From the NCBI GenBank assembly GCA_018240635.1, contig JAFEFJ010000002.1, forward strand, positions 1,251 through 65,250: a stretch of DNA of 64,000 bases, given 5' to 3'. Below, piece after piece: positions 22,174 to 46,035 of the stretch (within the stretch, counting starts at the first letter, position 1; each line of letters begins with the position of its first letter). The DNA is from Pseudomonadota bacterium (GTDB taxonomy: Bacteria > Pseudomonadota > Alphaproteobacteria > Acetobacterales > Acetobacteraceae). The translations under genes and the position numbers were made by a program. The notes beneath the pieces were generated by a model, which saw nothing but the letters and a program-made list of their open reading frames with translations, had not been told where the DNA came from and ran no database searches.

Positions 22174-23595
22174 TCACCTCGGCAGGATGAGAGACGGGGA
22201 AAGCGTGAGGCCGGCGGCCTCGCGCATGCGGATAAGCGGTCCGATCGCAACGAGCGTTGCGAACAGCAGCAGGACTTCGGTCAGATAGACGAAGCCGTAG
22301 CCGGTGGCGGGAACGGCCAGCGCCTCGCCCAGGAAGCCACGCGCCGCCAGCTCGCTCACGCCGTCGTGCAGCAGGCCGCCGAGCGCGATGGCCGCGCCCG
22401 CGGCGAAGGCCTGCGCGGCGCCCCAGGCGCCCAGCACCAACCCGTTCTGCCCGCCGCGTCCGGCATTCATCGATGCGGTCAGCGTGCCCACGGCGAACAG
22501 CGCGCTGCTGAAGCCGATCAGGGCGACGCCGGCGGCGAACAGCAGCGCGGAGTGGAACGGTGCGGCGAAGATTACGGCGACGAAGGCGCCGATGCCGGTC
22601 AGCGCGCCCGCCGCGGCAAGCCGGTACGGGTCGATGCGCCGCCCAAGCGCCTTGGCGCCCGCGACGAAGCCCACGAAGCCGCCGCAGGCCAGCATCGCGG
22701 TCAGCGTCGTCGTCGCGCTCACCGGCAGATGAAGGATCTGGCCACCATACGGCTCCAGGATGATGTCCTGCATGCTGAACGCGACGCTGCCCAGCCCGAC
22801 GGCGACGAGCTGCCGCACCGATCCGCTGGAGGCGACGAAGGCACGCCACGCCGCGCCGAAGCCGGGACGCTCCTCTTCGGAGGTTTGCACCGCGTTGCGC
22901 GGCTCCTGCTTCCACAGCGCGATCGCATTCAGCACCATGGTCGTGAGGGCCGCCGCCTGGATCACCTGGATCAGCCGGATTTCGCTGAACGGGCGCAGCA
23001 GCAGGCCGAAGATCACCGCGCTGACCGCCATGCCCACCAGCAGCATCGTGCACAGGAGCGCAACGACCCGCGGCTGCGCGTGCGGGGGCGCCAAGTCGGT
23101 CGCGAGAGCGAGGCCGATGGTCTGCGTCGTGTGCAGCCCCGCGCCCACCAGCAGGAACGCAAGCGCCGCGCCGACCTGGCCGATGATGATGGGGCCGTGC
23201 GTGTCGCCGGAGAGCACGATCAGCGCGAACGGCATGATCGCGAGCCCGCCGAACTGCAGCAGCGTGCCCATCCAGATGTAGGGAACCCGCCGCCAGCCCA
23301 GCACCGAGCGGTGATGGTCGGAACGGAACCCGACCACGGCGCGGAAGGGCGCGAAAATCAGCGGCAGCGCGACCATCACCGCGACGAGCCAGGCCGGCAC
23401 GCCCAGCTCGACGATCATCACGCGGTTCAGCGTTCCGATCAGCAGCACCACGGCCATGCCGACCGTCACCTGGAACAGCGACAGGCGCAGCAGGCGGGAC
23501 AGGGGCAGTTCCGTCGTCGCGGCATCCGCGAACGGCAGGAAGCGCGTGCCTATCCGCGTCCAGCTCAGCGCAAGCCTGTCGCGCTGTGCTTTCAT
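22174..23595 (-). CDS. lhaA: LH1 assembly protein LhaA (PucC/BCD MFS family)
   Basis: From ATG 23595: MKAQRDRLALSWTRIGTRFLPFADAATTELPLSRLLRLSLFQVTVGMA..., 12-TM PucC-family protein. Its position between bchM and puhA defines lhaA. Confidence 0.85.
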   Translation of the reverse strand: MKAQRDRLALSWTRIGTRFLPFADAATTELPLSRLLRLSLFQVTVGMAVVLLIGTLNRVMIVELGVPAWLVAVMVALPLIFAPFRAVVGFRSDHHRSVLGWRRVPYIWMGTLLQFGGLAIMPFALIVLSGDTHGPIIIGQVGAALAFLLVGAGLHTTQTIGLALATDLAPPHAQPRVVALLCTMLLVGMAVSAVIFGLLLRPFSEIRLIQVIQAAALTTMVLNAIALWKQEPRNAVQTSEEERPGFGAAWRAFVASSGSVRQLVAVGLGSVAFSMQDIILEPYGGQILHLPVSATTTLTAMLACGGFVGFVAGAKALGRRIDPYRLAAAGALTGIGAFVAVIFAAPFHSALLFAAGVALIGFSSALFAVGTLTASMNAGRGGQNGLVLGAWGAAQAFAAGAAIALGGLLHDGVSELAARGFLGEALAVPATGYGFVYLTEVLLLFATLVAIGPLIRMREAAGLTLSPSLILPR

Positions 23596-24271
23596 CCGCG
23601 TACCAGCTCGAACGCCTGGGAGATGTAGAAGCCGTTCGCGATGCGATGGCTGCGGCCCGGCGCCCAGCCGTCCATCGCCAGCAGGCGCGGCATGCGCTCG
23701 GCCCGGATCGGCTCGATCGCCGGCGCCCGGTCGGATCGCGGGAACAGCCGCCCGGCCATGTGCATCATCGCCAGCAGCGTCGTGCGCGGCGCGAAGGTCA
23801 TCAGGATCGAGGCGCGCGTCCGCGCCGCGAGCATTCCCACCACGCGCGCCATGTCGGGCTCGCGGTAGTGGATCAGCGAATCCATCGCCACGATGTGGTC
23901 GAATTCGCCAAGGCCGCTGTCCAGCATGTCGCCCGATAGGAACGTCACGCCCGGCTCGCCCGCCGCGCGTTCGCGCGCGAGTTCCACCAATGTCGGCGAC
24001 AGGTCGATGGCCACGACCTCCGCGCCGCGCCGCGCCGCGGCCACCGCAAGTGCGCCGGTGCCGCAGCCGGCATCCAGGATGCGCCGTCCGGTCAGGTCGG
24101 CCGGCAGCCAGTCCAGCAGCGTCGCGCGCATCCCGTCCCGCCCCGCACGGACGGTCGCGCGGATGCGCCCGAGCGGCGCGTCCGAGGTCAGGCGCGCCCA
24201 AGCCGACAGCGCCGTGCGGTCGAAATAGGTTTCAAGCTGCCCGCGGCGCTCGATGTAGGTCAGCGTCGGCA

Positions 24272-24272: not shown

Positions 24273-28696
<4,424 letters not shown>

Positions 28697-28722
<26 letters not shown>

Positions 28723-30217
28723 CGTACAGCGTCTCGATGGTGATTTGCGCCACGCCGCGATCGGCGGCGAAACGTTCGGTGTTCCTGCGCGCTTTGCCGC
28801 GAACGAAGAAGGGAATGCGCGCCAGTTCCTGCTCCGCTTCCGGCGACCAGCTCTGCCCGGCGTTTGCTGGCAAAACCACTGGCGGCGCGTCCGCGTGCGC
28901 GGCGCCCAGATGCGACGGGGCCGCGCCCTCGTGGAACTCGAAGTCGCCGCGGAACATGGAGAGAAGGTGCTCCTCCAGCCCCATCATCAGCGGGTGGATC
29001 CAGGTGTCGAAGAGCACGTTGGCGCCCTCGAACCCCATCTGCGGCGAATAGCGGGCAGGGAAGTCCTGCACATGCATTGGCGCGGAGATCACCGCGCAGG
29101 GCACGCCGAGTCGCTTGGCGACATGCCGCTCCATCTGCGTGCCCAGCACGAGGTCGGGATGCGCTTCCGCGATCGCGGCTTCCACCGCCAGGTAGTCGTC
29201 GGTGATCAGCGGCTCCACGCCATGCTCCGCGGCGGCGGCGCGCAGTTCGCGGGCGAATTCGCGGCTGTAGGTGCCAAGCCCGGCGATATCGAAGCCCAGC
29301 TCCTCGCGCGCGATGCGCGCTGCGGCGATGGCATGGGTCGCGTCGCCGAAGATGAAGACGCGCTTGCCTGTCAGATACGTCGAGTCGACCGACCGCGAAT
29401 ACCAGGGCAGCCGAGCCGCTTGGCCGTTCAGCACCGGCGCCGGATCGACGCCGGCGAGTGCCGCCACCTCGGCCACGAAGTCGCGGGTCGCGCCGATGCC
29501 CAGGGGCGCGGTCTTGGTCGCGGGCTGGCCGAATGTGCGCGTCAGCCAAGTCGCCGCGGTTCCCGCGATCTCGGGATACAGGACGACGTTGAAATCGGCC
29601 TCGCCGATGCGGGCGAGATCGGCGGGGCTCGCACCCAGCGGGGCCACGACGCCGATATCGATGCCCAGGCGCTCGATCAGGCGCCTGATCTCCACGACAT
29701 CGTCGCGGTGATGAAAGCCGAGAGCCGTGGGGCCGAGAATGTTGCAGACAGGGCGGCCACCCTTCTCTCGCGTTCGCGGCTGCGCGAGCGCACGCACCAA
29801 GCGATAGAAGGTCTCCGCCGCGCCCCAGTTCTCCTTGCGCTGATAGGACGGAAGCTCCAGCGGAACCACCGGCACCGGCAGGTCGAGCGCGCGGGCAAGG
29901 CCGCCGGGGTCGTCCTGCAGCAGTTCCGCGGTGCAGGACGCGCCGACCAGGATAGCCTGCGGGTCGAACCGCTCGTAGGCCTGCCGCAGCGCGTTCTGGA
30001 ACAGGCCTGCAGTGTCGCCGCCGAGATCGCGCGCCTGGAACGTCGTGTAGGTGACCGGCGGGCGGCGATCGCGCCGCTCGATCATGGTGAACAGCAGATC
30101 CGCGTAGGTGTCGCCCTGCGGGGCGTGCAGCACGTAGTGCACGCCAATCATCGCGGTGGCGATGCGCATCGCGCCGACATGCGGTGGCCCCTCGTAGGTC
30201 CACATCGCGAGCTGCAC
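28697..30217 (-). CDS. bchB: Light-independent protochlorophyllide reductase subunit B
   Basis: GTG start: (M)[47 protein letters not shown]..., BchB signature. The 3' end overlaps the bchH start by 26 nt. Confidence 0.95.
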
Positions 30218-30218
30218 G

Positions 30219-32068
<1,850 letters not shown>

Positions 32069-33203: not shown

Positions 33204-34640
33204 ATGGAGGCGCTGGGTCGTTTGAAGCCGTTCAGAGCCCCGCAGAACTCGATCGGCGAACTCGATCCCGAGATCGTCGCCCTTCTGCTCATGTCCGCCG
33301 CCGATATCGCGCTGATCCTGGACGATGCCGGGAAGATCCGGGACATCGCGATCCGCAGCGAGAGCCTGGCGGATGCGCTTGCGGGCTACGAAGCCTGGGT
33401 CGGGAAGGAGTGGGCGTCGATCGTCGCGCCCGACAGCACGGGGAAGGTGGCGCGCCTGCTGCGGGAAGCCGGCCCGCGGCGCGGCCCGGGCTGGCGGCAT
33501 ATCAACCACCTCACGGCGGCGGGCGTTTCCATCCCGGTTCTCTACACGGCCGTTCCGATCCCCTCGCGTGGCCATGTCGTGGCGTTCGGGCGCGACCTGC
33601 GGGTCCAATGGGAACTGCAGCAGCGCCTGCTTGCCGCGCAACATTCGCTTGAACGCGATTATTCGCGCCTGCGGCTGCTCGAAACCCGATTCCGCATGCT
33701 GTTCGAGCTGTCGGGCGAAGCGGTCATCATCCTTGATGGCCAGACCCAGCGCGTCGCCGAGGCCAACGCCGCCGCGCGCGGTCTGCTGGCGCGCGACACC
33801 AAGCGACTCGCCGGCCGCCCGGTCGCGGAGCTGTTCGCCGAGGAAAGCATGCAGACGCTCAGCCAGCTTCTGGCCAGCGTCGCGGCGACCGGGCGCGCCG
33901 ACGATCTGCGCGCCAAGCTCGCCCACGACCGGCGGGAAGTGGTGATCGCGGCGTCGAGCCTGCGCCAGGACGGCAGCCCGCTGTTCCTGCTCCGCCTGCT
34001 GGAGCCGCATGCGCCCGGAGTCGAGGGCCTGCCGAAGCTGAAGGCGAAGCTCCTGAAGATCGTCGAAAGCGCGCCGGATGCGGTCGTCGTCACCGGCTCG
34101 GACGGACAGATTCTCACCGCCAATGCTGCGTTCCTCGATCTCGTCCACATGCCGAGCGAGCAGCAGGTGCATGGCGAATCGCTCGACCGCTGGCTCGGCC
34201 GGCCGGGAGTGGATCTCGGCGTCATGCTGGCGGGGCTGCGCGAACATGGCTTCGTGCGCATGTTCGCGACCAGGATCTGCGACGAATACGGCGTCGGCGC
34301 CGATGTCGAGATTTCGGCCGTCGCGGCGATGAACGGCAGCGGACCGTGCTACGGCTTCCTGATCCGGTCCATCGGCCAGCGTCCCAACGCGGCCTCTCCC
34401 GTCACCGGGGCCCTGCCGCGGGCGGTGGAGCAGCTCACGGAACTGGTCGGCCGGCGGTCGCTGAAGGATCTCGTCCGCGAATCGACCGATCTGATCGAGC
34501 GGCTGTGCATCGAGACCGCGCTCGAGATCACGGGCGACAACAGGGCGTCGGCCGCCGAGATGCTCGGGCTGTCGCGCCAGAGCCTTTACACCAAGCTGCG
34601 CCGGTACGGGCTCGGCGACACCGCGGTCGAGGCGACATGA
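33204..34640 (+). CDS. ppsR: Transcriptional repressor of photosynthesis genes PpsR/CrtJ
   Basis: 478 aa with PAS-type repeats and a C-terminal Fis-type HTH (DNRASAAEMLGLSRQSLYTKLRRYGL). Synteny ppaA-ppsR-bchG. Confidence 0.9.
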   Translation: MEALGRLKPFRAPQNSIGELDPEIVALLLMSAADIALILDDAGKIRDIAIRSESLADALAGYEAWVGKEWASIVAPDSTGKVARLLREAGPRRGPGWRHINHLTAAGVSIPVLYTAVPIPSRGHVVAFGRDLRVQWELQQRLLAAQHSLERDYSRLRLLETRFRMLFELSGEAVIILDGQTQRVAEANAAARGLLARDTKRLAGRPVAELFAEESMQTLSQLLASVAATGRADDLRAKLAHDRREVVIAASSLRQDGSPLFLLRLLEPHAPGVEGLPKLKAKLLKIVESAPDAVVVTGSDGQILTANAAFLDLVHMPSEQQVHGESLDRWLGRPGVDLGVMLAGLREHGFVRMFATRICDEYGVGADVEISAVAAMNGSGPCYGFLIRSIGQRPNAASPVTGALPRAVEQLTELVGRRSLKDLVRESTDLIERLCIETALEITGDNRASAAEMLGLSRQSLYTKLRRYGLGDTAVEAT

Positions 34641-36768: not shown

Positions 36769-37257
36769 GTGCTCATTCCCATCGTCGTCGCGATCGTCGC
36801 CGTCACCGTGGTCGCGGTTGCCGGCGCGCTGCTTACCCGCATCGACGGCTGGTATAGGGCGCTCCGCAAGCCAACCTGGCAGCCGCCGGACTGGCTGTTC
36901 GGTCCCGTCTGGACCGCCATCTTCGCGATGGTCGCCGCATCCGGCGTGCTGGCTTGGCGCGCCACGGAAGACGGCGGTCCCCGTGGCTGGATCCTCGGCC
37001 TGTTCGCGCTCAACGGCGTGCTCAACATGGCCTGGAGCGGCCTGTTCTTCACGCTGCGCCGGCCCGATTGGGCGCTGGCGGAGGTGGTTCCGCTCTGGCT
37101 TTCCATCGTGGCGCTGATCGTCGCGATCGCGCCGGTTTCGTCCGTGGGCGCATGGCTGCTCGTGCCCTATCTGCTCTGGGTGGCATTCGCCGCCTTTCTC
37201 AACCTTACCGTCGTCCGCCTGAACGGAACGGCGGCGCAGGGCGTGTCCGCCCGCTGA
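36769..37257 (+). CDS. tspO: Tryptophan-rich sensory protein TspO (CrtK)
   Basis: GTG start 5 nt after AAGGAGG. 162 aa, five TM helices. ...WYRALRKPTWQPPDWLFGPVWTAIF...LNMAWSGLFF...LLWVAFAAFLN..., TspO/MBR family. Confidence 0.9.
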   Translation: MLIPIVVAIVAVTVVAVAGALLTRIDGWYRALRKPTWQPPDWLFGPVWTAIFAMVAASGVLAWRATEDGGPRGWILGLFALNGVLNMAWSGLFFTLRRPDWALAEVVPLWLSIVALIVAIAPVSSVGAWLLVPYLLWVAFAAFLNLTVVRLNGTAAQGVSAR

Positions 37258-37380: not shown

Positions 37381-39201
37381 ATGAACCTAACCGCCCCCCA
37401 GCTCTGCCCCTGCGGCAGCGGCCTGCGCGCGATACGTTGCTGCAGCCAGCCGCAGGGCGCCCGCGCGCCGGCCGAGGCGACCCGCCACCTGATCCCGCTC
37501 GTCGAGCGGGCGCTGGCCGCGCATCGCCAGGGAGCGACTGAAACCGCCGAGCGGCTCTGCCTCGATGTGCTCGAACTCGCGCCGGACCGGATCGGGGCGC
37601 TGTCGGTGCTGTACGAGATCCGCAAGGCCCAGGGCAACCAGACCGCGGCCGAGGCGTTGCTGCGGCGTCTGGTCGGCCTCGATCCGAACAACCTGCTCGT
37701 TACGAACGAACTCGCGCTGATCCTGCTCGGCAAGGGCAGCATCGCGGAAGCGGAAGTCCACGCCCGCAACGCCGTACGCATCGCGCCTGAGAACCCGCAG
37801 GCCCACAACCTGATGGGCATGATCCTGACGGAGGCGAACCGGCCGCAAATCGGCGAATACCACTACCGCCGCGTCCTGGAACTCAGCGGCACGCGCGATC
37901 CGATAGTGCTCGCCAACCTCGCTTGGAACCTGAAGAACCAGGGTCGCATGGACGAGGCCCGCGCTCTCTACAAGGAGTCGGTGGCGGTCGCCCCGGACGT
38001 CCTGCAAACCCAGATCGGCTTCACGCGGCTCGAGGAAGCGGACCGGGATTTCCCCGCCGCGCTCCGCATCCTCGACGATGCGGACACGCGGTTTCCGGGC
38101 AATGTCGGTTTGCGCCTTGCCCGCGCCGCCGTTCTCGGGCGCATGCAGCGCTACAACGAAGCTGTCGCGCTCATCGACGGCGCGGCCACCGACAACGTCG
38201 CGCTCGGCCCGAACGAGCTGCTGGAGAAGGGACGCCTGCTCGACAAGATGGGCCGCTACGACGCGGCCTGGGCGGCCTACGCCGAAGGCAAGTCCCTTGC
38301 CCGGCAGCTCACCGGCCATGCCTATCTGGACGAGGCGGCGCGCAACCTGCTCGACCGGCTGCGCGGCTTCTTCATCGAGGGAAGGCTGCGCACGCTCCCA
38401 CGCGCAACCGTCCGCACCGACGTGCCACAGCCCATTTTCATCCTCGGCTTTCCGCGCTCTGGCACCACGCTCGTCGAGCAGACCCTCTCCGCCCATCCGC
38501 GCATCGCGGCGGGCGACGAGCTGCCGCTGATCCACGAGATCACCGCGATCATGCCGCGCATGCTCGCCTCTCCGCTCGAATATCCGGAAGCCCTGGCCGA
38601 GCTATGGATGGGCGACCAGCGGGAAGGGCTCGACAACCTGCGCGACTACTACCTGCAGAAGGTGCGGCAGCTCGGCGTGCTGCGGCGCGGCGCGACGCGC
38701 TTCACCGACAAGATGCCGCTGAACGAGACGCATATCGGCCTGATCGGGCTGCTGTTTCCCGAAGCGCCGATGATCCATGTGCTGCGCCATCCGCTCGACA
38801 TCATGGTCTCGGCGTTCTCGAACGCGTTCACGCACGGCTTCAACTGCGCGGCCGACCTTCATACGGCGGCGACGCATTATGTGCGGGTGATGGACCTGGT
38901 GCAGCATTATCGCGGCGAGATGGCGCTGCGCTACCTGCCGGTCCGCTACGAGGACATCGTCGCCGGCCAGGAAGCCAGCGTCCGTGCCATCCTGGATTTC
39001 GTCGGCGAGGCGTTCGATCCCGCTTGCCTGGCGTTCCACGAAAACCGCCGCTACGCCCGCACCGCGAGCTACGCGCAGGTCACCGAGCCGCTGTACGACC
39101 GCTCGGTCGACCGGTGGCGGCATTACCGCGCGCATCTCGAACCGGTCATCCCGATCCTCGCGCCGGTGATCGAACGCCTCGGCTACCGGCTCGACCCGTG
39201 A
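37381..39201 (+). CDS. SEC-C motif / TPR-repeat / sulfotransferase fusion protein
   Basis: 606 aa. N-terminal CPCGSGLRAIRCC (SEC-C metal-binding motif), then TPR-like repeats from about residue 40 to 330. The C-terminus has a PAPS-binding-type sulfotransferase motif (FILGFPRSGTTLVEQTL). Confidence 0.8.
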   Translation: MNLTAPQLCPCGSGLRAIRCCSQPQGARAPAEATRHLIPLVERALAAHRQGATETAERLCLDVLELAPDRIGALSVLYEIRKAQGNQTAAEALLRRLVGLDPNNLLVTNELALILLGKGSIAEAEVHARNAVRIAPENPQAHNLMGMILTEANRPQIGEYHYRRVLELSGTRDPIVLANLAWNLKNQGRMDEARALYKESVAVAPDVLQTQIGFTRLEEADRDFPAALRILDDADTRFPGNVGLRLARAAVLGRMQRYNEAVALIDGAATDNVALGPNELLEKGRLLDKMGRYDAAWAAYAEGKSLARQLTGHAYLDEAARNLLDRLRGFFIEGRLRTLPRATVRTDVPQPIFILGFPRSGTTLVEQTLSAHPRIAAGDELPLIHEITAIMPRMLASPLEYPEALAELWMGDQREGLDNLRDYYLQKVRQLGVLRRGATRFTDKMPLNETHIGLIGLLFPEAPMIHVLRHPLDIMVSAFSNAFTHGFNCAADLHTAATHYVRVMDLVQHYRGEMALRYLPVRYEDIVAGQEASVRAILDFVGEAFDPACLAFHENRRYARTASYAQVTEPLYDRSVDRWRHYRAHLEPVIPILAPVIERLGYRLDP

Positions 39202-39247
39202 CCGCACCCGATGGCGTCCCGTGCGGGGCCTGCCCGCGCCGGGCCTG

Positions 39248-40690
39248 ATGGAAACGCCGCCGTCAAATCCCAACGCGACGGTCTCCGCCGTGCAGGGCGG
39301 AATCGCACCGCCGATGGTGCCCATCCCGCTCGACGCCGCGCTTGCCATCGCGCGCGAACTGGAGAGTACCGGCCGCTTCGACGAGGCTTGGTCGATGCTG
39401 CAATTCATCCTCGCTGCGGCGCCGCAACAGGGCGAGGCCCTGCACCTCGCGGGGGTCGTCGCGTTCCGCCGCGGCGAGGGGGAGGCGGCGCTCCGGCTGA
39501 TGGAGCAGTCGCTGCAATACGGCATCGACCTGTCGCTCTATTGGCGGAACATCGCCGAACTCTATCGCGTGCTCGGCCGCCTCGACGACGCGATCGGAGC
39601 GGCGCGAAGGGCAACCAGGCTTGCGCCCGCCGATCCGCTCTGCCTGCAGAACCAAGCCATCATCCACTACCATCGGCTGGAGTTGGGCGAGGCGCTGGAT
39701 TGCAGCGCGCGCGCGCTTGCCATCGCCCCGGCGCTGCCCGGCGCGCATTTCGCCCGTGCGGAGGCGCTGCTGCTGCGCGGCGACTGGGCCGAGGGGTGGG
39801 AGGAATACGAGTGGCGCTTCCGCATCGGCGGCGCCGCGCCCCTGATGCCGCCGACCGATCGCCCGCAGTGGCAGGGCCGGCAAATCGCCGATGCGACGCT
39901 GCTTCTGGTCGCCGATCAGGGCTTCGGCGACGTCATCCAGTTCGGCCGGTATATCCCCTGGGCACGCCAGCGGTGCGCGCGTCTTGCCATCGCGTGCAGC
40001 GGCGAGATGCTGCCCGTCCTGCGCCGCCTCGCGCCGGATGCGGTCCTGTTCACGCGGTGGGACGACTGCCCTCCCTATGCCGCGTTCGCGGCGCTTTCGG
40101 GTCTGCCGCGCCTTGCGGGCACGCGACCGGAGAATGTGCCGGCCGACATCCCCTATCTTCGGCCCGATCCCGAGCGCGTCGCCCGCTGGACCGCCCGGCT
40201 CGACGGGCTCGTGCCGCGCGGGCTGCGCCGGATCGGGGTGATCTGGGCCGGGCGTCCGGCGCACAACAACGACCGCAACCGCAGCCTGCATCTTCCCGAT
40301 CTCGCTCCGCTCGGCGAGGTGCCGGGCATCGCATTGATCGCCTTGCAGAAAGGCGCCCGCACAGGCCAGGCCGGCGGATGGTTCGCGCGTGCGCCGCTCA
40401 TCAACGTCGGGGCCGAGATCGCGGACTACGAGGACACGATGGCGATCCTCGCGGTCCTTCAGGAGTTGGTTACGGTCGATACCTCCGTCGCCCATCTGGC
40501 GGGCGCGATGGGCCGCCCGGTGCGCGTCATGCTGCCGTTCGCGCCGGATTGGCGCTGGCTTCTCGGCCGCGCCGACACGCCCTGGTACCCGACGATGCGC
40601 CTGTACCGGCAGCAAGCGCCGCACCGATGGGCGCCGGTCATTGCCGGGATCGCGGGCGACTTGGCGGGGGCGTCTCCGCCCGCCGCCTGA
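39248..40690 (+). CDS. TPR-repeat protein fused to a GT9 (heptosyltransferase)-like glycosyltransferase domain
   Basis: N-terminal TPR repeats. The C-terminal half (...LLLVADQGFGDVIQFGRYIPW...VTVDTSVAHLAGAMGRPVRVMLPFAPDWRW...) matches the GT9-like fold seen in TPR-glycosyltransferases. ATG 39248 or GTG 39221 could be the start. Confidence 0.7.
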   Translation: METPPSNPNATVSAVQGGIAPPMVPIPLDAALAIARELESTGRFDEAWSMLQFILAAAPQQGEALHLAGVVAFRRGEGEAALRLMEQSLQYGIDLSLYWRNIAELYRVLGRLDDAIGAARRATRLAPADPLCLQNQAIIHYHRLELGEALDCSARALAIAPALPGAHFARAEALLLRGDWAEGWEEYEWRFRIGGAAPLMPPTDRPQWQGRQIADATLLLVADQGFGDVIQFGRYIPWARQRCARLAIACSGEMLPVLRRLAPDAVLFTRWDDCPPYAAFAALSGLPRLAGTRPENVPADIPYLRPDPERVARWTARLDGLVPRGLRRIGVIWAGRPAHNNDRNRSLHLPDLAPLGEVPGIALIALQKGARTGQAGGWFARAPLINVGAEIADYEDTMAILAVLQELVTVDTSVAHLAGAMGRPVRVMLPFAPDWRWLLGRADTPWYPTMRLYRQQAPHRWAPVIAGIAGDLAGASPPAA

Positions 40691-40721
40691 TCGCCGCCCC
40701 GACGGCGTCCGCAGCCTTGGG

Positions 40722-43700
40722 TCAGGCCGCGATGTGGCTGTGCAGCACCGCCAGCGGATCGGCCAGCGACTGGTCGGTCGAAGCGCCCGCGTAGTTCTGC
40801 GTCGTTCCCGTCGCGCCGCCGCTGCTGCCGACGGTCAGCGGCACGAGATCCTGCAACGCGACGGTCCCGGCCGGGGCCGCCTGGAACAGGATGTCGGTGC
40901 CGCCCTGGCCATCGCTCTGCAACCCGAAATTCTGGGTCGTGTAGCTGCCCTGGAATTGCAGCGTGCCGAGCGTCGCGCCTCCGGCTCCCTTCAGCGTCAG
41001 CGTGTGGTTCAGGAACGACAGCGAGGCGATGTTCAGGTTCCGCATGTCGATGACGTCGCCGGAAGCGAAGCCCGTGAAGGTGCTGGTCACCGCCGAGGTG
41101 GTGTTGACGACGAGCGTCTCGGAACCGCCCGTCGCGAAATTCACCTGCGAAACCGTCAGGCCCTTCTGCGTGACCACCGTGGAGCTGTTCGCGATGCTCA
41201 GGACGCCCGTGCCCGACACGTCGCTGGCAAGCGTCAGCGTGCCGCCCTGGCCGATGATCTTGCCGTTATCGACGATGCCGGCCGTTCCGCCGCCGCCGAT
41301 CTGGCCGCGCCCCGCCACCGTGAAGCCCTGCGCGACCGTGATCGCGCCAGCGGCCGCGGCAGCGGCGGCGGCATTGCCGCCGACGACGACCTTCCCGTTG
41401 GCGGATGCCGCCAGCGTCCCGCCGCCCATCGTCACGCCCGCGAGCTGAACGACGCCGGCCCCCGCCGTCTGCAGGATGCCGCCGCTTCGGATCGTGACCT
41501 GCCCGGCATCCGACAAGGACCCGCTCACGGCGAGCGTTCCGCTGTCCATGAGGCTCGTCCCCGCGCCCAGCGTGTTGCTGCCGGCCATGCGCCAGCTCGC
41601 GCCGGAGGCAACGCCGATGCTGGTGAAGCCGACATACTGGCTGCCCAGGCCCGCGATCGTGCCCGCCGACGCTGCCGATGCCAGGGTCAGCGAGTCGTTG
41701 CTTCCGTTGCCCTGCACCACGCCGTTGAACACCGCGCCGGGGGTCACGATCAGCGTGGCCGCGTTCGCCCCGAACAGCACCGCCTGGCCCGCCGATCCGG
41801 CCGAGCCGTAGGTGCTGCCGCCGCCTGCGCCGCCGGCGATCGTGCCGGAATTGGTCAGCGTCCCGCCGTTCAGATAGACGCCCACGCCGCCTGCGCCGCC
41901 GGCCGTGTAGAGCCCCGCGCCACCCGTGCCGCCCGTGATGCTGCCGGTGTTGGTCGCCGACCCGCCGGCCGCCAGGGAAAGGCCGGTGCCGCCGGCGCCG
42001 CCGGTATAGGCGCCGTTGCCCCCGGATCCGCCCGTCACCGTGCCGCTGTTGGTGGCGCTGCCGCCGACGGCCAGCAGGATGCCGATGCCGCCGGCCACGC
42101 TGTCGAAGCTGTAGCCGCCCGCACCACCCGTGACGCCGCCGCTGTTGACGACCGATCCGCCTGCCGACAGCACGATGCCAGCACCGCCGATGCCTGCCAG
42201 CGCCCCTTCGGCCCCCGCGCCGCCGGTGATGGCGCCCTGGTTCGTCAGCGTGCCGCCGCCATCGACCGCAAAGCCGATGCCGCCTGCGCCGGCGACGAAG
42301 CCGCCGCCGCCGATGCCGCCGGTGATCGTTCCATCGCTGGTGCTGCTGCCGCCGGTCAGAACGGCGCCGTCTCCGCCGGTCCCGCCAAGGCCGTACAGCC
42401 CGGCATAGTCGCCGGCGCCGCCGCTGATCGCGCCGAAGGCGGTCACCGTCGCGCCCGCCTCGATGATCAGGCCGGCTCCGCCGGCGCCGCCGATGTAGTA
42501 GCCGATGCCGCCGTCGCCGCCATGCACCGCGCCGGTGTTGGCGAATGTGCCGCCCGCCGCGACGTCGACGCCCGCACCGCCGGTGCCGCCGTTGAAGCCC
42601 TGTCCGCCCATGCCGCCGGTCACGATGCCGGGGCTCGTCAGCAAGCCCGCGCTGCCGACGACCGCGCCCGCGCCGCCGGTGCCGCCGATGGCGCCCGATC
42701 CTCCGGCGCCCCCGTTGATGGCGCCGTAGCTGGTCGCGCTGCTGCCGGCCAGGGAAAGGCCCGTGCCGCCGGTGCCGCCATACAGGCTGCTCCCGCCGGT
42801 GCCGCCTGCGATCAGGCCGTAATTGCCGATGGTCGCGCCGCTCGTGCCGGAAACGCCGGCGCCCCCCGCGCCGCCCGTCCCGTAGGTCCCGGCAAGGCCG
42901 CCGCCGCCGCCCGATATGGTCGCATAGTTGCCGACGGTCCCGCCCGCCGCGACCGCAATCCCGGCGCCGCCGGCACCGCCCGCCTCGTAAGAGTTGCCGC
43001 CGAGCCCCCCGGTGGTCTGGCCCGCGTTGTAGACGCCGCCGCCCGCCGTCAGCGCGACGCCCGTCCCGCCGGTGCCGCCGCTCGCGTAGCCATAGGCACC
43101 GCTGCCGCCGCCGATGGCGCCGTCGTTGGTCACGTAGGCGCCGTAGGTGCCGGCCTGCACGCCAGCGGCGGTCCCGGTGATCGTCCCCGTCGCCGTGTTC
43201 GACAGATAGCCGCCGCCGTTCAGCGTAACGCCGACGCCCGCGGTCCCGTTCGCGCGGATCAGGCCTGCGTTCATGATCGATCCGGAATCCTGGAGCGACA
43301 CGCCCGCCGCGACGCCGTTGATCGAACCGCTGTCGATATTCGTCAGCGTCGCCTGCGCATACGAGTTGACGGCAATGCCCTGCGGACCGTTCGCGACGAT
43401 GCTTCCGGCGTTCGAGACCGTGGCCACGCCGTCGTAAAGGTAAACGCCGAACTTGGTGCCGCCGATCACGCCGGTGCTGCCGTTCACCAGCGTGCCGCCG
43501 GCGTGCATCTCTAGGCCGATGCCGATGCTGCCGGGGCTCAGGATCTTGCCGAAATTAACAACCGTACCGGCAGCTGAGAAATAGACGCCGTATCCGGAAC
43601 CAGCGATCGTCCCCGTGGAGGCGTTGGAGACGTAGCCGCCGCTGATCATTTCGACGCCGAGGGCCGTCGTCACGCCAGGGCTCGTCGGGCCGGTGCCGCC

Positions 43701-44738
43701 GATGTAGCCGGCATTGATCACCGTTCCGGCGCCGTAGAGAGAACGGGCCCCCGCATACGATGCTGCGATCCGCCCCGTCGCTGCGTTGTTGATCACGCCG
43801 CCCAAATGCAGATCGACGCCGAAGCTCTTCGTCCCGGTCGCGGTAATCTGGCCGCCGTTGAGGATGGTGGCGACTCCGCCGTCGCTCACGACGCCATACG
43901 ACACGCCGCGGATCGAGCCGCGGGCGGCGTTCGAGACATAGCCGCCGGACAACAGGCCGATGCCGGCGCCGGCCGTGCCCGTTCCGGTGATCAGGCCGCC
44001 GTTGATGATCGTGCCCGATCCGGCTTCCACCGACACGCCGTAATAGGTGCCTGCGATCGTGCCGGTGGACTGATTGGTGACGGAGCCGCCACCATTCAAC
44101 GTCACGCCGTTCGCGAAGGTGCCGGTTCCGGTGGCGGCGATCGTGCCGGCGTTGACGACTGTTCCGCCGCCATAGATCCCAACGCCCGCATACAGGGCGG
44201 TGATCGACGCGCTCGCGGCGTTGGTTACCGTCCCGCCTTCGAACAGCGCGACGCCCACGCCCAACTTCGCGGTGGCGGAGATGCTGCCCTGGTTGACCAC
44301 CTTTCCGGCGACATCGTACAGAAATACTCCGCCCGCGCCGCCCGTGATGGCCGCCCCGGCCGCGTTGGTGACCGATCCGCCCCCAAACATCCCCACGCCG
44401 ATCGCGGTCTTGCCGCTTCCGGTGATCTTCCCGCGGTTGACGAGCAGGCCGTAGCCGTAGATGCCGACGCCCTTGTAGGTGCCGACGATCGAACCCGCCG
44501 CATTATTGGTGATCGTGCCTGAATTGCCCGCGCCGAACAGGGCGATGCCAATGCCTGTTGCCCCGGTTCCGCCGATGTTCCCGGAGTTGCTGATCGACCA
44601 CCCGCTGCTGTAGCCGACGATGGCGAATCCGACATTGGAGATCTTCACGCCGTTTTTGACGACGATTGGATTGAAGTAGGGATAGCTGCCGGAGTCGAGG
44701 TTGATGCCGATAGTCGTGCTGGCGGTTATTGTTGTCAT
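40722..44738 (-). CDS. 1338-aa Gly/Thr/Ser/Ala-rich repeat protein (predicted beta-helical; export route unknown)
   Basis: Uninterrupted 4017-nt ORF, with GGAG 8 nt upstream of ATG 44738. No N-terminal signal peptide (MTTITASTTIGINLDSG...). About 48-aa GGxVxN...GxIxG...GV units in the N-terminal part, then GGxGGxG-rich units, then a C-terminal part lacking an autotransporter barrel. Confidence 0.85.
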   Translation of the reverse strand: MTTITASTTIGINLDSGSYPYFNPIVVKNGVKISNVGFAIVGYSSGWSISNSGNIGGTGATGIGIALFGAGNSGTITNNAAGSIVGTYKGVGIYGYGLLVNRGKITGSGKTAIGVGMFGGGSVTNAAGAAITGGAGGVFLYDVAGKVVNQGSISATAKLGVGVALFEGGTVTNAASASITALYAGVGIYGGGTVVNAGTIAATGTGTFANGVTLNGGGSVTNQSTGTIAGTYYGVSVEAGSGTIINGGLITGTGTAGAGIGLLSGGYVSNAARGSIRGVSYGVVSDGGVATILNGGQITATGTKSFGVDLHLGGVINNAATGRIAASYAGARSLYGAGTVINAGYIGGTGPTSPGVTTALGVEMISGGYVSNASTGTIAGSGYGVYFSAAGTVVNFGKILSPGSIGIGLEMHAGGTLVNGSTGVIGGTKFGVYLYDGVATVSNAGSIVANGPQGIAVNSYAQATLTNIDSGSINGVAAGVSLQDSGSIMNAGLIRANGTAGVGVTLNGGGYLSNTATGTITGTAAGVQAGTYGAYVTNDGAIGGGSGAYGYASGGTGGTGVALTAGGGVYNAGQTTGGLGGNSYEAGGAGGAGIAVAAGGTVGNYATISGGGGGLAGTYGTGGAGGAGVSGTSGATIGNYGLIAGGTGGSSLYGGTGGTGLSLAGSSATSYGAINGGAGGSGAIGGTGGAGAVVGSAGLLTSPGIVTGGMGGQGFNGGTGGAGVDVAAGGTFANTGAVHGGDGGIGYYIGGAGGAGLIIEAGATVTAFGAISGGAGDYAGLYGLGGTGGDGAVLTGGSSTSDGTITGGIGGGGFVAGAGGIGFAVDGGGTLTNQGAITGGAGAEGALAGIGGAGIVLSAGGSVVNSGGVTGGAGGYSFDSVAGGIGILLAVGGSATNSGTVTGGSGGNGAYTGGAGGTGLSLAAGGSATNTGSITGGTGGAGLYTAGGAGGVGVYLNGGTLTNSGTIAGGAGGGSTYGSAGSAGQAVLFGANAATLIVTPGAVFNGVVQGNGSNDSLTLASAASAGTIAGLGSQYVGFTSIGVASGASWRMAGSNTLGAGTSLMDSGTLAVSGSLSDAGQVTIRSGGILQTAGAGVVQLAGVTMGGGTLAASANGKVVVGGNAAAAAAAAGAITVAQGFTVAGRGQIGGGGTAGIVDNGKIIGQGGTLTLASDVSGTGVLSIANSSTVVTQKGLTVSQVNFATGGSETLVVNTTSAVTSTFTGFASGDVIDMRNLNIASLSFLNHTLTLKGAGGATLGTLQFQGSYTTQNFGLQSDGQGGTDILFQAAPAGTVALQDLVPLTVGSSGGATGTTQNYAGASTDQSLADPLAVLHSHIAA
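41790..43125 (-). repeat. Gly-rich (GGxGGxG, PGRS-like) degenerate tandem coding repeats, about 32-aa unit
   Basis: Residues about 538-983 repeat GG-x-[VT]-x-N-x-G-x-I-x-GG-x-GG-x5-GG-x-GG-x-G. The DNA is dominated by GCC/GCCG runs on the plus strand. Confidence 0.6.
43126..44531 (-). repeat. Degenerate tandem coding repeats, about 48-aa unit (GGxVxN-x3-GxIxG-x3-GV...GxVxNxGxI...)
   Basis: Read from the translated protein, residues about 70-537. At least nine consecutive units begin GGSVTN, GGTVTN, GGSVTN, GGYVSN, GGVINN, GGYVSN, GGTLVN, ATLTN, GGYLSN. Confidence 0.6.
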
Positions 44739-45024
44739 GCGACGCTCCGGAACGACCTAAAATATAGGAGGGGTTAAAAGCCGACCGGCGACCCCCTCTG
44801 CCGCGGAACGCCTATGGCACGATTGGGATCGAGCGTCTAGGTGATCTCGAAACTGAGACTGTTGCCGATGCGATCACGAAATGCGGAAATCCGCTCGGCC
44901 AAGCATGACGGGACGGCGGCAACCCGCGGGACTCTCGGAACGCTCCCCGCTCGCCTATGATGGCTCCGACATGCGGGCGCATTCAGACCCGCGAAGCCTT
45001 CTCGCGGGCACGGGGATTTGGTCG

Positions 45025-46035
45025 ATGCACCGTCTGTTGCATGAGGAGCACGCGGCCGACGCGGTGGCCGTCTCCACCGGGCGGCTGCCCGCCGCCGATG
45101 CCGTCGCAGCGCTGGTCCGTGAGGGACACGAACGATATCGGGGCGTGCGCGACGGCGCTGTGGCCGACTACATCCCCGCCTTGGCGGCGGCCGATCCGGC
45201 GTGGTTCGGCGTGGCGCTCTGCGGCGTCGATGGCGGGTTGTTCGCGGCCGGCGATGCGGACCGGGTGTTCTCGATCCAGTCGATCTCCAAGCCGTTCGTG
45301 TTCGCGCTCGTCTGCCAGGCTCTCGGCGGCGGGCGCGCACGCGACAGCATCGGGGTCAACGCGACCGGCCTTCCGTTCAACTCCGTAATGGCGATCGAAC
45401 TGAACGCGCGCCGTACGATGAACCCGATGGTCAACGCCGGCGCGATCGCCACCACCAGCCTGATTCCCGGCGCGAACGAGGACGAACGGTGGGATTTCCT
45501 GTGCGACGGCCTCTCGCGCTTCGCGGGCCGGACGCTGGCGATGGACCAGGGCGTCTATGAGTCGGAGGCTGCGAGCAATCAGCGCAACCGTGGCATCGCG
45601 CGCCTGCTGCACGGCTATGGCCGCATGTATTCCGATCCCGACGAGGCGACCGATCTCTACACGCGGCAATGTGCGCTGATGGTCAGCGCACGGGATCTCG
45701 CCGTCATGGGCGCCACGCTTGCCGATGGCGGGGTCAACCCCGTCACCGGCCTTCGCGTGCTCTATCCGGATCGCTGCAGGCGTATCCTGGCGGTGATGGC
45801 GACGGCCGGGCTTTATGAGCAGTCGGGCGACTGGCTCTACGAAGTGGGGCTGCCCGGCAAGAGCGGTGTGTCCGGCGGCCTGGTCACGATCGCGCCCGGC
45901 AAATGCGGCCTGGGCACTTTCGCCCCGCCTCTCGACGATGCGGGCAACAGCGTGCGCGGGCAGCTCGTCACACAGTTTCTTTCGGAACGGCTTGGCCTGA
46001 ATATCTTCGCGTCGAAGCCCGAAGATACGGGTTGA
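45025..46035 (+). CDS. glsA: Glutaminase A
   Basis: ...DYIPALAAADPAWFGVALCGVDGGLFAAGDADRVFSIQSISKPFVFAL...MNPMVNAGAI...GLPGKSGVSGG..., beta-lactamase-fold glutaminase motifs. The start could also be 44971 or 44881. Confidence 0.85.
   Translation: MHRLLHEEHAADAVAVSTGRLPAADAVAALVREGHERYRGVRDGAVADYIPALAAADPAWFGVALCGVDGGLFAAGDADRVFSIQSISKPFVFALVCQALGGGRARDSIGVNATGLPFNSVMAIELNARRTMNPMVNAGAIATTSLIPGANEDERWDFLCDGLSRFAGRTLAMDQGVYESEAASNQRNRGIARLLHGYGRMYSDPDEATDLYTRQCALMVSARDLAVMGATLADGGVNPVTGLRVLYPDRCRRILAVMATAGLYEQSGDWLYEVGLPGKSGVSGGLVTIAPGKCGLGTFAPPLDDAGNSVRGQLVTQFLSERLGLNIFASKPEDTG

Follow-up and report, generated by a model that had tools for sequence, protein, structure and literature searches.

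The 4-kb gene studied here encodes a beta-helical rod that, with modest confidence, we read as a surface protein exported by a type I secretion system (T1SS), possibly modified by the products of a neighboring two-gene cassette, and serving as an adhesin or as a matrix/surface-coat protein. The window, i.e., the whole stretch of DNA analyzed, comprised 64,000 nt of contig JAFEFJ010000002.1 (GCA_018240635.1; positions 1,251 to 65,250 of the forward strand) from a member of the Acetobacteraceae.

Gene model and composition

As originally predicted, a single ORF of 1338 aa occupies positions 40722 to 44738. It lies on the minus strand and is intact, with a GC3 of 0.88 and the synonymous codon use of the neighboring genes. 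The start codon is supported by a GGAG motif 6 nt upstream and by relatives that are homologous from residue 1, and a stop codon sits 6 codons upstream of it. The 5' leader is a candidate promoter/RBS region, with no match to the sigma-70 consensus across 44739..44800. The claimed richness in Gly, Thr, Ser, and Ala was borne out (G, 27.1%; A, 13.7%; T, 11.0%; S, 8.7%; together 60%), and the 122-kDa product (pI 4.9) contains no Cys, 35 Asp plus Glu, and 24 Lys plus Arg residues. The parts of the gene are as follows, in window positions:

40722..44738, minus strand: whole ORF of the target gene, 1338 aa, signal-less beta-helix protein; stop codon at 40722-40724
44739..44800, minus strand: 5' leader, GGAG Shine-Dalgarno 6 nt before the ATG plus an AT-rich patch, ttttaacccctcctatatttta, in a ~70% GC genome
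44604..44738, minus strand: N-terminal cap, residues 1-45, MTTITASTTIGINL...NPIVV..., kept from residue 1 in relatives
43104..44603, minus strand: repeat regime 1, residues 46-545, beta-helix of 24-aa turns with a 48-aa super-period
41790..43103, minus strand: repeat regime 2, residues 546-983, 32-33-aa units, regime-1 turn core plus GGxGG loop
41169..41789, minus strand: C1, residues 984-1190, non-periodic beta-helix segment, holds the A8 run, conserved in the family
40869..41168, minus strand: C2, residues 1191-1290, alpha-crystallin/CS-like beta-sandwich cap, SGF..GD.IDL ... SDGxGGTDI.F
40725..40868, minus strand: C-terminal tail, residues 1291-1338, predicted disordered, acidic, without K/R, ends ...LADPLAVLHSHIAA

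Repeat regimes and predicted fold

BLOSUM autocorrelation against 200 shuffles revealed that the three proposed repeat regimes are real, their units reading as described: residues 60-537 have a period of 48 aa (z = 9.4) with a sub-period of 24 aa (z = 5.0), residues 538-985 have a period of 32/33 aa (z = 7.0/5.3), and residues 986-1338 gave no dominant period. The regime 2 unit consists of a 24-aa core, G-V-x-L-x-x-G-G-x-V-x-N-x-G-x-I-x-G, plus a Gly-rich loop of ~9 aa, while the reported A8 run is present at residues 1122-1129. Tandem repeats in the DNA were short and low-scoring only; the repeats are therefore of old origin, have diverged in their amino acid sequence, and represent neither a recent expansion nor an assembly artifact.

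The AlphaFold2 models agree with the parallel beta-helix that had been proposed. Residues 1-545 formed a confident beta-helix (pLDDT > 90), and residues 984-1338 were modeled with a pLDDT of 87 and a pTM of 0.81, with residues 984-1290 as a beta-helix plus beta-sandwich and the 48-aa tail disordered; the model of regime 2 was periodic but of low confidence. Structure searches returned the Ag43, Fap2, and pertactin passengers as the nearest solved folds, adhesin passengers scoring 0.9 to 0.97, and TibA also appeared among the matches. Taken as a whole, the protein would form a rod composed of the N-terminal cap, ~45 right-handed beta-helix turns in three regimes, the beta-sandwich cap, and the 48-residue acidic tail, and this rod, predicted to be extracellular or on the cell surface, is most likely an adhesin or a matrix/surface-coat protein.

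The fold matches also included PL6 alginate lyases, polygalacturonases, and tailspike depolymerases, which, together with a weak GH49 match below threshold (E = 0.014), are consistent with a secreted beta-helical enzyme (polysaccharide lyase or glycanase) instead of an adhesin; T1SS-secreted beta-helix glycanases exist in rhizobia (PlyA/PlyB). We regard this as quite unlikely, however, considering that the enzyme matches had probabilities of 0.02 to 0.23 versus 0.9 to 0.97 for adhesin passengers, that catalytic families were all below threshold in the protein and six relatives, and that regular, very Gly-rich turns and the large paralogue arrays in which family members occur are more typical of structural or adhesive rods.

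Family membership and Hint-bearing relatives

The protein is not an isolated oddity: homology searches recovered 1004 matches, and the C2 terminal module was found in 7,940 clusters at 50% identity. The protein is thus a member of a very large, uncharacterized, signal-peptide-less, and Cys-poor family, which spans Acetobacteraceae, Rhodospirillales, and Stellaceae; the protein itself matched no curated family. A signal-peptide-like N terminus occurred in 0 of 123 complete C2-bearing representatives, and 55 of 139 representatives were Cys-free. In some relatives, which again lack signal peptides, the fusion partner is a phosphoesterase domain, DUF4347, or FG-GAP.

In most family members a Hint_2 domain directly follows the sandwich module, and the present protein is an exception, ending 48 residues past C2. 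The B-type bacterial intein-like (Hint_2) proteins of alphaproteobacteria (Amitai et al. 2003, via review PMC7765530) are its true homologues, at 30 to 45% identity, and have the N-terminal cap, the regime-1 repeats, and the C1+C2 unit in common with it, whereas a family HMM at maximum sensitivity found neither the Hint domain nor the ~180-aa post-Hint tail in the protein. It is a Hint-less family member. Its C-terminal architecture is common to many Hint-less relatives; its -AA terminus resembles Hint-type tails and was seen in it alone among the Hint-less members examined.

Export signals and link to type I secretion

The absences noted earlier were confirmed. There is no Sec or Tat signal, the first 27 residues lacking K/R and any hydrophobic h-region, and the N-terminal cap (residues 1-45) is not a signal peptide; neither an autotransporter barrel nor a TPS domain was found; and the strict GGxGxDxUx motif is absent, a single relaxed match at residue 1277 (GQGGTDILF) being the one GGxGxD-like string of this non-RTX protein. 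Moreover, no secretion genes, T1SS included, were detected among the 20 gene-like window ORFs scanned with Pfam.

The export route had been left unassigned, but the gene contexts of the family point to an HlyB/HlyD-type T1SS. The relative P0099 lies directly downstream, on the same strand, of an ABC exporter (723 aa) and an HlyD-family membrane fusion protein (MFP). Strong homologues of this ABC adjoin the cassette described below in loci L132, L145, L156, and L158, accompanied by MFPs in three of them (control loci, 0/80). The operon order in L156 is sulfotransferase, ABC, MFP, and TPR gene, and the ABC encoded there is homologous to HlyB over its full length (E = 6e-248); in its C39-like domain, Pro replaces the non-catalytic Tyr of HlyB. 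Counted from the beta-helix side, T1SS ABC plus MFP occurred within 10 kb in 1 of 11 relatives' loci. Judging from these contexts and the sequence itself, the protein is probably exported by a hemolysin-type T1SS, most likely of the HlyB/HlyD/TolC type and encoded elsewhere in the genome, which would recognize the unfolded C terminus. The tail (residues 1291-1338) is the candidate signal; the tail motif DP[LFW], shared with relatives, was only weakly enriched (5/74 observed versus 1.6 expected).

A type V passenger, autotransporter or two-partner, with its translocator encoded elsewhere would fit three observations: the best structural neighbors were Ag43, Fap2, pertactin, Hap, and EtpA; relatives contain Pfam domains of passenger type, AIDA and BigA_3rd; and some relatives are annotated at source as autotransporter adhesins. 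A Sec signal, however, is obligatory for type V secretion, and the absence of one in the protein, with a stop codon so close upstream of its start, largely refutes this very improbable reading; 123/123 complete representatives likewise lack a signal, the barrel and TPS domain are missing, and BamA/TpsB-like neighbors were absent from 11 relatives' loci and the scanned window genes.

The lack of a recognizable signal of any validated class and of secretion genes among those scanned could also mean that the protein is not exported and serves as a beta-helical scaffold inside the cell, or that it is what remains of a Hint-bearing ancestor and is no longer competent for export, with the Hint-type-like -AA end marking a deletion derivative. 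Against this stand the reading frame intact over 4 kb at high GC3, the same C-terminal architecture in many Hint-less relatives, 0 Cys in 1338 residues, and a family linked to HlyB/HlyD genes and fused to extracellular-type domains, and we give it only a small chance compared with T1SS export.

TPR cassette adjoining the gene

The gene is genetically tied to two neighboring genes, encoding a TPST-like enzyme and a possible glycosyltransferase:

37381..39201, plus strand: TPR + Sulfotransfer_3 protein, 606 aa, first cassette gene; catalytic domain closest to protein-tyrosine sulfotransferases
39221..40690, plus strand: TPR + conserved C-terminal domain protein, 489 aa, second cassette gene; weakly GT9-like

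The second cassette gene and the target are convergent, their stop codons 31 nt apart, and thus are not co-transcribed here. These two TPR genes are the neighbors that matter; the photosynthesis cluster emphasized in the original prediction does adjoin the gene, but that adjacency looks incidental. About 20 named Acetobacteraceae/Roseomonas-group loci showed no synteny.

Co-occurrence with TPR-sulfotransferase and TPR-glycosyltransferase genes, proposed earlier as a check, was found. Linkage was counted in 80 metagenome loci and 80 control loci, the latter from another collection with a different taxon mix: verified family members adjoined the cassette in 13/80 loci (12/62 with at least 1 kb of flank) versus 0/80 controls (Fisher p = 7e-4 on the first count, 11/80 versus 0/80), mostly as immediate neighbors, same-strand on either side or divergent. 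The sulfotransferase lay immediately upstream of the TPR gene in 56/80 metagenome loci. From the beta-helix side, the cassette was present in 2 of 12 contexts, namely, the window itself and the T1SS-bearing locus of P0099, which holds a full-length TPR homologue at 51.5% identity.

The best matches of the sulfotransferase domain were TPST2/TPST1 (E = 2e-11), and the alignment included the PRSGTT PAPS motif. A protein substrate is not proven by such similarity; acidic neighbors flank few of the Tyr residues of the target. The second protein matched GT9 weakly (Pfam E = 0.0036, below threshold; PDB profile E = 0.77). The cassette enzymes may modify the target before export: the conserved cassette, apparently dedicated to this family, would most plausibly use its TPR domains to bind the unfolded protein and, while this is still in the cytoplasm, sulfate and possibly glycosylate it.

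Alternatively, the cassette may modify a glycan (LPS core, O-antigen, or capsule) on which a T1SS-exported surface-layer/coat protein docks via its N-terminal cap. Caulobacter RsaA is a T1SS substrate whose N terminus is anchored on LPS, and GT9 is a family of LPS heptosyltransferases. The second cassette protein matched only WaaC and Glyco_transf_9 in structure or sequence, Kdo transferase and DUF374 (LPS genes) recur beside the cassette in 4-5/80 loci, the cap is kept from residue 1 across the family, and a Cys-free, acidic, small-residue-rich composition fits S-layer-type proteins. We nevertheless consider glycan docking rather unlikely: the sulfotransferase domain is nearest to protein-tyrosine rather than carbohydrate sulfotransferases, TPR domains, modules that typically bind proteins, are present in both cassette products, and the LPS genes are rarer cassette neighbors (4-5 loci, possibly reflecting lineage synteny) than family members (13).

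Comparison with known systems

The likeness to mycobacterial PE_PGRS and collagen-like Gly arrays suggested originally is compositional only: residues 546-983 are Gly-rich with GGxGG strings, but these strings form loops within a regular V-x-N-x-G-x-I beta-helix turn, and there is no PE domain or Gly-X-Y triplet period.

Residues 984-1290 had their best PDB matches in the Candida Awp1/Awp3b beta-helix/alpha-crystallin adhesin domains (E = 4e-4, prob 0.98) and, as in the Awp1/Hyr-Iff-like A-domain, consist of a beta-helix with an alpha-crystallin-like sandwich as its cap. Global TM-scores are low (0.25 to 0.37), however, the module is C-terminal here and N-terminal in the fungal adhesins, and the protein lacks a disulfide and a GPI anchor. 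PF11765 (Hyphal_reg_CWP) matched two relatives at about threshold and did not match the protein itself. Of Awp1-like sequences, 93% are reported to be bacterial and unstudied (PMC8746771).

Like HlyA-type and non-RTX T1SS substrates, the protein has no N-terminal signal and is acidic and Cys-free, with its C-terminal ~50 residues disordered, and its relatives lie beside a full-length HlyB homologue (degenerate C39-like domain) and an HlyD-family MFP. It differs in having one degenerate GGxGxDxUx copy instead of a tandem array, in a signal that is a candidate, and in exporter genes not being found among the scanned window genes.

In Xanthomonas, the tyrosine sulfotransferase RaxST accompanies the RaxA/RaxB T1SS, RaxX is a 60-aa peptide whose double-glycine leader is cleaved by RaxB, and the complete raxX-raxSTAB cluster was found only in that genus according to the raxST paper (PMC6637879, PMC4646787). 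Here too, T1SS ABC and MFP genes cluster with a TPST-like gene, and in L156 the genes are interleaved, which implies cytoplasmic sulfation followed by T1SS export. In contrast, the cassette-linked exporter is HlyB-type without the catalytic Cys, the candidate substrates are 700-2200-aa beta-helix proteins, and the sulfotransferase carries fused TPR repeats and has a second TPR protein as its partner.

Ag43, AIDA-I, and TibA share with the protein a long right-handed beta-helix rod with short Gly/Thr/Ser/Asn-rich turns and, through the heptosyltransferases AAH and TibC, a putative GT9-like modifying enzyme adjoining the gene. The protein nonetheless lacks their Sec signal and C-terminal barrel, the GT9 similarity of its neighbor is weak, and its candidate modifying enzymes carry TPR domains. 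The closest analogies for the proposed modification by the cassette are raxST-raxAB and TibC/TibA.

Coding sequence and repeat architecture

The 1338-aa protein is encoded on the minus strand by a single unbroken open reading frame (ORF) of 1338 codons (40722-44738), which is native coding sequence, with a GC content of 0.88 at third codon positions, compared with 0.61 and 0.62 at first and second positions, and with the same preferences among synonymous Gly, Ala, Thr, and Val codons as the neighboring housekeeping genes. A GGAG motif 6 nt upstream supports the start codon, as do relatives whose alignments begin at their own first residue, and a stop codon lies 6 codons 5' of the ATG. Further long ORFs overlap the gene in other frames and on the opposite strand:

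40389-43514 (+), overlapping long ORF
40963-41448 (+), overlapping long ORF
44225-44635 (-), overlapping long ORF

These ORFs, one of which has a third-position GC content of 0.91, were rejected as genes and regarded as high-GC artefacts of GGC/GCC-rich coding in a region of 72% GC. The giant protein has a mass of 122 kDa and a pI of 4.9, with 27.1% Gly, 13.7% Ala, 11.0% Thr, 8.7% Ser, no Cys, 35 acidic residues, and 24 basic residues.

Substitution-matrix autocorrelation, scored against 200 shuffles, revealed a 48-residue period with a 24-residue sub-period over residues 60 to 537 (z 9.4 for the former) and a 32/33-residue period over residues 538 to 985 (z 7.0/5.3), with no dominant period found after residue 985. 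The three repeat regimes of the original prediction were thereby recovered, together with the A8 run and the single RTX-like string (residue 1277) that it had pointed out. The unit of regime 2 (residues 546 to 983) consists of the turn core of regime 1 (residues 46 to 545), G-V-x-L-x-x-G-G-x-V-x-N-x-G-x-I-x-G, plus an added GGxGG-rich loop. At the DNA level, Tandem Repeats Finder gave only short, low-scoring repeats, so the protein repeats are old.

Predicted fold

In the AF2 model of residues 1 to 985, residues 1 to 545 reached a pLDDT of >90 with three short strands per 24-residue turn, and regime 2, for which the alignment offered hardly any coverage and confidence was therefore low, was periodic. 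Residues 984 to 1338, modeled from a 19-sequence alignment (pLDDT 87, pTM 0.81), formed a beta-helix to approximately residue 1190 (C1, 984-1190), then a beta-sandwich of ~100 residues (C2, 1191-1290), and a 48-residue tail (1291-1338) with a pLDDT of <50. A beta-helix rises ~4.8 Å per turn, and roughly 45 turns would make a rod of about 20 to 25 nm. According to Foldseek, the nearest folds to the N-terminal rod were passengers of the type V adhesins Ag43 and Fap2 (prob 0.97), then pertactin, Hap, and EtpA, with far lower scores for lyases and tailspikes. The parallel beta-helix anticipated from the raw sequence is thus what the models and fold matches returned. A phage tailspike was also considered and rejected, given the absence of phage genes nearby and the low fold probabilities.

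The C-terminal unit came closest to the A-domains of Candida glabrata Awp1/Awp3b/Awp14 (E 4e-4, prob 0.98, with a TM-score of only 0.25 to 0.37), and separately matched alpha-crystallin/CS domains, weakly, over ~70 columns. The Awp1-type fungal module is a right-handed beta-helix capped by an alpha-crystallin domain, and 93% of its sequence relatives are bacterial (Reithofer et al., PMC8746771). The corresponding Pfam model, Hyphal_reg_CWP (PF11765), had no match in the giant protein at E<=1, and reached threshold in two of its relatives, P0163 (E 6.7e-7, 28.9 bits, cut-off 28) and P0025.

A large family with an optional Hint domain

Full-length searching retrieved 1004 proteins at E<=1e-5, none more than ~50% identical to the giant protein, from Acidiphilium, Acidibrevibacterium, other Acetobacteraceae, Rhodospirillales, and Stellaceae. 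Judged by homology in the N-terminal cap, the regime 1 repeats, and C1+C2, it belongs, as a new member without Hint, to a large, uncharacterized family, the Hint_2 (B-type BIL) beta-helix proteins. Pfam, NCBIfam, and PDB sequence searches with the protein and six relatives returned no family match, a profile of the C-terminal alignment run against PDB gave nothing but an insignificant match to an ice-binding protein, and a GTDB genome scan with the protein found no close orthologue. Looking up the exact protein sequence, also with two alternative starts, likewise gave no entry. Moreover, we found neither a curated NCBIfam model nor a paper covering the family, including in the literature on Hint domains, exoproteomes, and Acetobacteraceae adhesins.

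Among 128 retrieved relatives, 76 carry Hint_2 followed by a conserved tail of ~180 aa. A family-specific HMM run on the giant protein with --max and without filters detected neither element, and across the six-frame translation of the window the family HMM gave no significant Hint_2 match, its best score (E 0.26) falling in an unrelated ORF. According to a review (PMC7765530), Amitai et al. 2003 described BIL/Hint domains in variable bacterial proteins. A polymorphic-toxin reading of the Hint-bearing relatives was rejected, the post-Hint tail being a conserved domain and not a variable toxin. Residues 984 to 1290 (C1+C2) behave as a conserved unit, which forms the C-terminal end of Hint-less relatives and directly precedes Hint in the others; Hint starts within -2 to +6 residues of the C2 end in 31/35 Hint-bearing representatives. 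This layout of cargo, Hint, and accessory region (the ~180-aa domain) is like that of Hedgehog, an analogy that predicts autocleavage exactly at the C2 boundary in Hint-bearing relatives, possibly with transfer of the new C-terminus to a nucleophile.

C2 alone is widespread, with 7,940 cluster representatives recovered by exhaustive HMMER searching (of which 2,380 scored E<=1e-10), often with multiple copies, in proteins of up to 7,319 aa with AIDA, Big_13, DUF4214, and Hint_2 as co-occurring domains. On some relatives, a precomputed match to PF27417 ('BigA_3rd', an autotransporter-passenger domain) was present. A C-terminal -AA occurs in 35/76 Hint-bearing relatives (~2.4% expected) and in 0/52 Hint-less relatives. 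The giant protein, itself Hint-less, ends in ...HSHIAA (40725-40740), and its -HIAA resembles the end of the relative P0076 (-HVHIAA); this resemblance may be coincidental, may mark a C-terminal signal that the proteins have in common, or may be left over from a Hint-bearing ancestral gene reduced by deletion.

Family genes often form tandem paralogue arrays (loci L001, L002, L088, L138, L161, and L170), for instance with members of 2526 and 1253 aa, two of 969 aa each, or five copies around a single copy of the two-gene cassette described below (L138). One array comprises three adjoining unannotated ORFs of 680, 854, and 675 aa, of which only the 854-aa ORF was confirmed as a member. Such arrays suggest that the genes duplicate rapidly and locally, as those of adhesins or variable surface proteins do.

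Absence of canonical export signals

The original prediction had seen no Sec/Tat signal, no autotransporter barrel, and no secretion genes in the window, and all three absences held. Residues 1 to 27 contain no Lys or Arg and no hydrophobic h-region, and a 12-stranded barrel (PF03797) was found neither by Pfam nor in the AF2 C-terminal model, where the beta-helix and sandwich give way to the disordered tail. HlyB-like ABC and HlyD-like MFP genes, components of a type I secretion system (T1SS), were not detected among the 20 gene-like ORFs of the window scanned with Pfam. Compared with type Va autotransporters, the protein has the beta-helical passenger and lacks the cleavable N-terminal Sec signal. 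The RTX motif GGxGxDxUx had no strict and one relaxed match in the protein, and HemolysinCabind was not found.

Across the family, a crude test found a signal-peptide-like N-terminus in 0/123 complete representatives; Cys is absent from 55/139 representatives. Relatives without signal peptides are fused to a phosphoesterase domain, DUF4347, or FG-GAP. In one of them, P0119, a phosphoesterase domain (phospholipase C / acid phosphatase family) begins at residue ~27 and is fused to beta-helix repeats, which supports the idea of a scaffold with which cargo leaves the cell independently of an N-terminal signal.

Genomic surroundings

The neighboring proteins match exactly those of a 'Proteobacteria bacterium' MAG (accessions MBS0558533-546). 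The adjacent glutaminase is 75 to 80% identical to enzymes of Roseomonas, Neoroseomonas, Roseicella, and Roseococcus, and thus the MAG is placed in the Acetobacteraceae of the Roseomonas group. The gene of the giant protein sits between the end of a photosynthesis gene cluster spanning 15423-37257, consistent with a phototrophic Roseomonas-group member, and glutaminase/TauD/PutA:

15423-16589, Mg-chelatase ChlI-type subunit
22174-24201, PucC
25162-28722, 1186-aa ORF
28697-30217, BchB
30219-31487, second nitrogenase-type subunit, probably BchN
33204-34640, PAS-HTH_8 regulator, PpsR-like
36769-37257, TspO
44881-46035, longest glutaminase ORF, 384 aa

Homologues of the glutaminase align only from residue ~46-49 on, and these alignments place its true start probably near 45020, so that the two divergent genes would be separated by ~280 nt of intergenic DNA, in which the promoter of the giant gene would also lie. 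Among 80 glutaminase-anchored loci, ~20 of them in named Acetobacteraceae/Roseomonas-group genera, none carried homologues of the giant protein, either TPR gene, TspO, TauD, or PutA; the adjacency to photosynthesis genes is therefore without detectable conservation, and a syntenic link of the giant gene to glutaminase or to the photosynthesis cluster was rejected.

A two-gene cassette beside the beta-helix gene

Two genes, 19 nt apart and in the same direction, converge on the giant gene, with 31 nt between the stop codons, and are not co-transcribed with it in the window because of this convergent arrangement:

37381-39201 (+), TPR protein with a Sulfotransfer_3 domain (E 2.8e-35), 1.5 kb from the giant gene
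39221-40690 (+), TPR protein of 489 aa with a highly conserved C-terminal domain and a weak GT9 match

The catalytic domain of the first protein is closest to human tyrosylprotein sulfotransferases (TPST2/TPST1 as best PDB matches; TPST2 E 2e-11 across the domain), and its PRSGTT PAPS loop aligned with that of TPST, a sequence likeness that is no proof of a protein substrate. In the second, Glyco_transf_9 scored E 0.0036 and 17 bits, under the cut-off of 22, and the family profile recovered from PDB only the nucleotide-sugar motif of WaaC (E 0.77), leaving a weak, putative GT9 assignment.

To follow this cassette in other genomes, 80 metagenome loci anchored on its second gene (48 to 71% identity) were analyzed by local six-frame searches. 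A full-length sulfotransferase homologue lay directly upstream on the same strand in 56/80 loci, most of the others ending before the upstream sequence, compared with 0/80 controls. The cassette appears to be an undescribed two-gene operon in its own right, and it is common in peat and soil metagenomes. Beta-helix family members, verified by SEG- and composition-corrected BLAST to the giant protein or by the C2 HMM, adjoin it in 13/80 loci, and in 12 of the 62 with at least 1 kb of flank. A first pass had given 11/80 cassette loci versus 0/80 controls (Fisher p = 7e-4 on those counts), the control loci holding twice as much DNA and being drawn from a different collection. These members are mostly the immediate next gene, on the same strand upstream or downstream or divergent, and include both Hint-bearing and Hint-less proteins; L138 alone has five copies. 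Two loci (L092, L141) were dropped as cluster members, their similarity to the giant protein not being verifiable, and in L109 a Hint-bearing ORF converges on the cassette as in the window, with direct similarity to the giant protein not found.

Linkage to HlyB-type secretion genes

The cassette is also linked to T1SS genes in other genomes. Strong homologues of T1SS ABC exporters occur in four cassette loci (L132, L145, L156, L158) and HlyD-family MFPs in three, compared with MFPs in 0/80 control loci. In L156, the sulfotransferase, ABC, MFP, and TPR genes follow one another on one strand, and the ABC protein is homologous to E. coli HlyB over its full length (E 6e-248, residues 49-743 versus 8-705). 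The C39-like N-terminal domain of the L156 protein has Pro at the position of HlyB's non-catalytic Tyr and lacks a catalytic Cys; DPG/ETG stands at the site that such a Cys would occupy. A bacteriocin/RaxB-type exporter was rejected, the linked ABC being HlyB-like. Exporters of the HlyB class handle large substrates with C-terminal signals.

P0099, a Hint-less Stellaceae relative of 2219 aa, covers 87% of the giant protein. An ABC (723 aa) and MFP (467 aa) pair lies directly upstream of it, and its locus also contains two paralogues of the window's TPR gene, one 51.5% identical over its full length (E 2e-173). A 92-aa ORF without a Pfam match (L089:9674-9952), between the MFP gene and P0099, may encode a chaperone or another small accessory component of this system. 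P0099 ends in ...LADPFHFWTIQN and the giant protein in ...LADPLAVLHSHIAA. The tail of the latter (residues 1291 to 1338) is predicted to be disordered and acidic and is without Lys or Arg. The DP[LFW] motif common to both tails is weakly enriched (5/74 observed versus 1.6 expected), and His/Trp/Phe at family tail ends are more clearly so (17.8% versus 5.4% overall).

The loci of ten other relatives hold neither a T1SS ABC/MFP pair nor the cassette, and carry tandem paralogues instead. In one of these ten, L170, a gene for a TolC-family OEP precedes a tandem pair of Hint-domain family genes (760 and 1959 aa) by 9 kb (L170:1-949, 7662-9944). In another, the Hint-bearing relative P0007 is followed, after 171 nt, by a Sulfatase-family gene of 776 aa (L171:15970-18300).

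Proposed pathway and its significance

We infer a pathway in which the giant protein would be bound and modified by the cassette proteins, would then leave the cell through a T1SS encoded elsewhere than in the window, by means of its disordered acidic tail, and would serve outside as an adhesin or surface rod. In its specific form, namely that the cassette is a dedicated system for the cytoplasmic O-sulfation, and perhaps glycosylation, of giant beta-helix proteins ahead of their HlyB/HlyD-type export, with the giant protein as one substrate, the proposal is tentative, and we consider it rather unlikely to be correct in full. In the main alternative reading, the cassette could instead modify a glycan to which the rod binds, in the style of the RsaA S-layer, as the Kdo-transferase and DUF374 genes near some cassette loci suggest. 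Recurrent cassette neighbors comprise a Kdo transferase (Glycos_transf_N, 4 loci), DUF374 (5 loci), a CHASE2-adenylate/guanylate cyclase (5 loci), and an Extensin-like_C protein (4 loci), in L093, L099, L122-L125, and others among L090-L169; they may reflect lineage synteny or an envelope/LPS connection.

Giant signal-less beta-helix proteins are among the commonest 'hypothetical' genes of Acetobacteraceae and related soil/peat alphaproteobacteria, with no characterized member. Their domain grammar can now be written as a cap, a beta-helix, a beta-helix/alpha-crystallin-like module, and an optional Hint, and the family gains a testable export route (an HlyB-type T1SS) and a conserved pair of candidate modifying enzymes. 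In addition, the link to the Awp1/Hyr-Iff module ties a clinically relevant yeast adhesin fold to a large, unstudied bacterial reservoir. To our knowledge, a single bacterial system for protein tyrosine sulfation, in Xanthomonas, has been recognized so far. If true, the cassette-based modification proposed here would represent a second bacterial protein-sulfation pathway after RaxST, far more widespread and directed at structural surface proteins, not a signalling peptide. With a TPST-like enzyme genetically linked in many genomes to T1SS genes and to surface rods, the existence of sulfated bacterial adhesins would become directly testable.

Comparison with known systems

What is genuinely interesting is that a TPST-like sulfotransferase, a TPR protein, HlyB/HlyD, and a beta-helix protein recur as a conserved module, for which we found no description in the literature. 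In the TibC/TibA and AAH/AIDA-I systems, beta-helix adhesins are glycosylated by an adjacent GT9-type enzyme; the gene of the 489-aa protein adjoins the giant gene, and the likeness of its product to GT9 is below the cut-off. RaxX-raxSTAB resembles the module in placing a PAPS-motif sulfotransferase related to tyrosylprotein sulfotransferases beside its substrate, for which the giant protein is the candidate here. The two differ in that the rax module combines a peptidase-containing ABC with a double-glycine-leader peptide, whereas the linked ABC is HlyB-like and the giant protein has no GG leader. raxST-raxAB is thus an analogue for sulfation coupled to a T1SS (PMC6637879), with tyrosine O-sulfation of the giant protein only putative. 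The module is best classed as related to T1SS adhesins and to raxSTAB-like sulfation-secretion systems.
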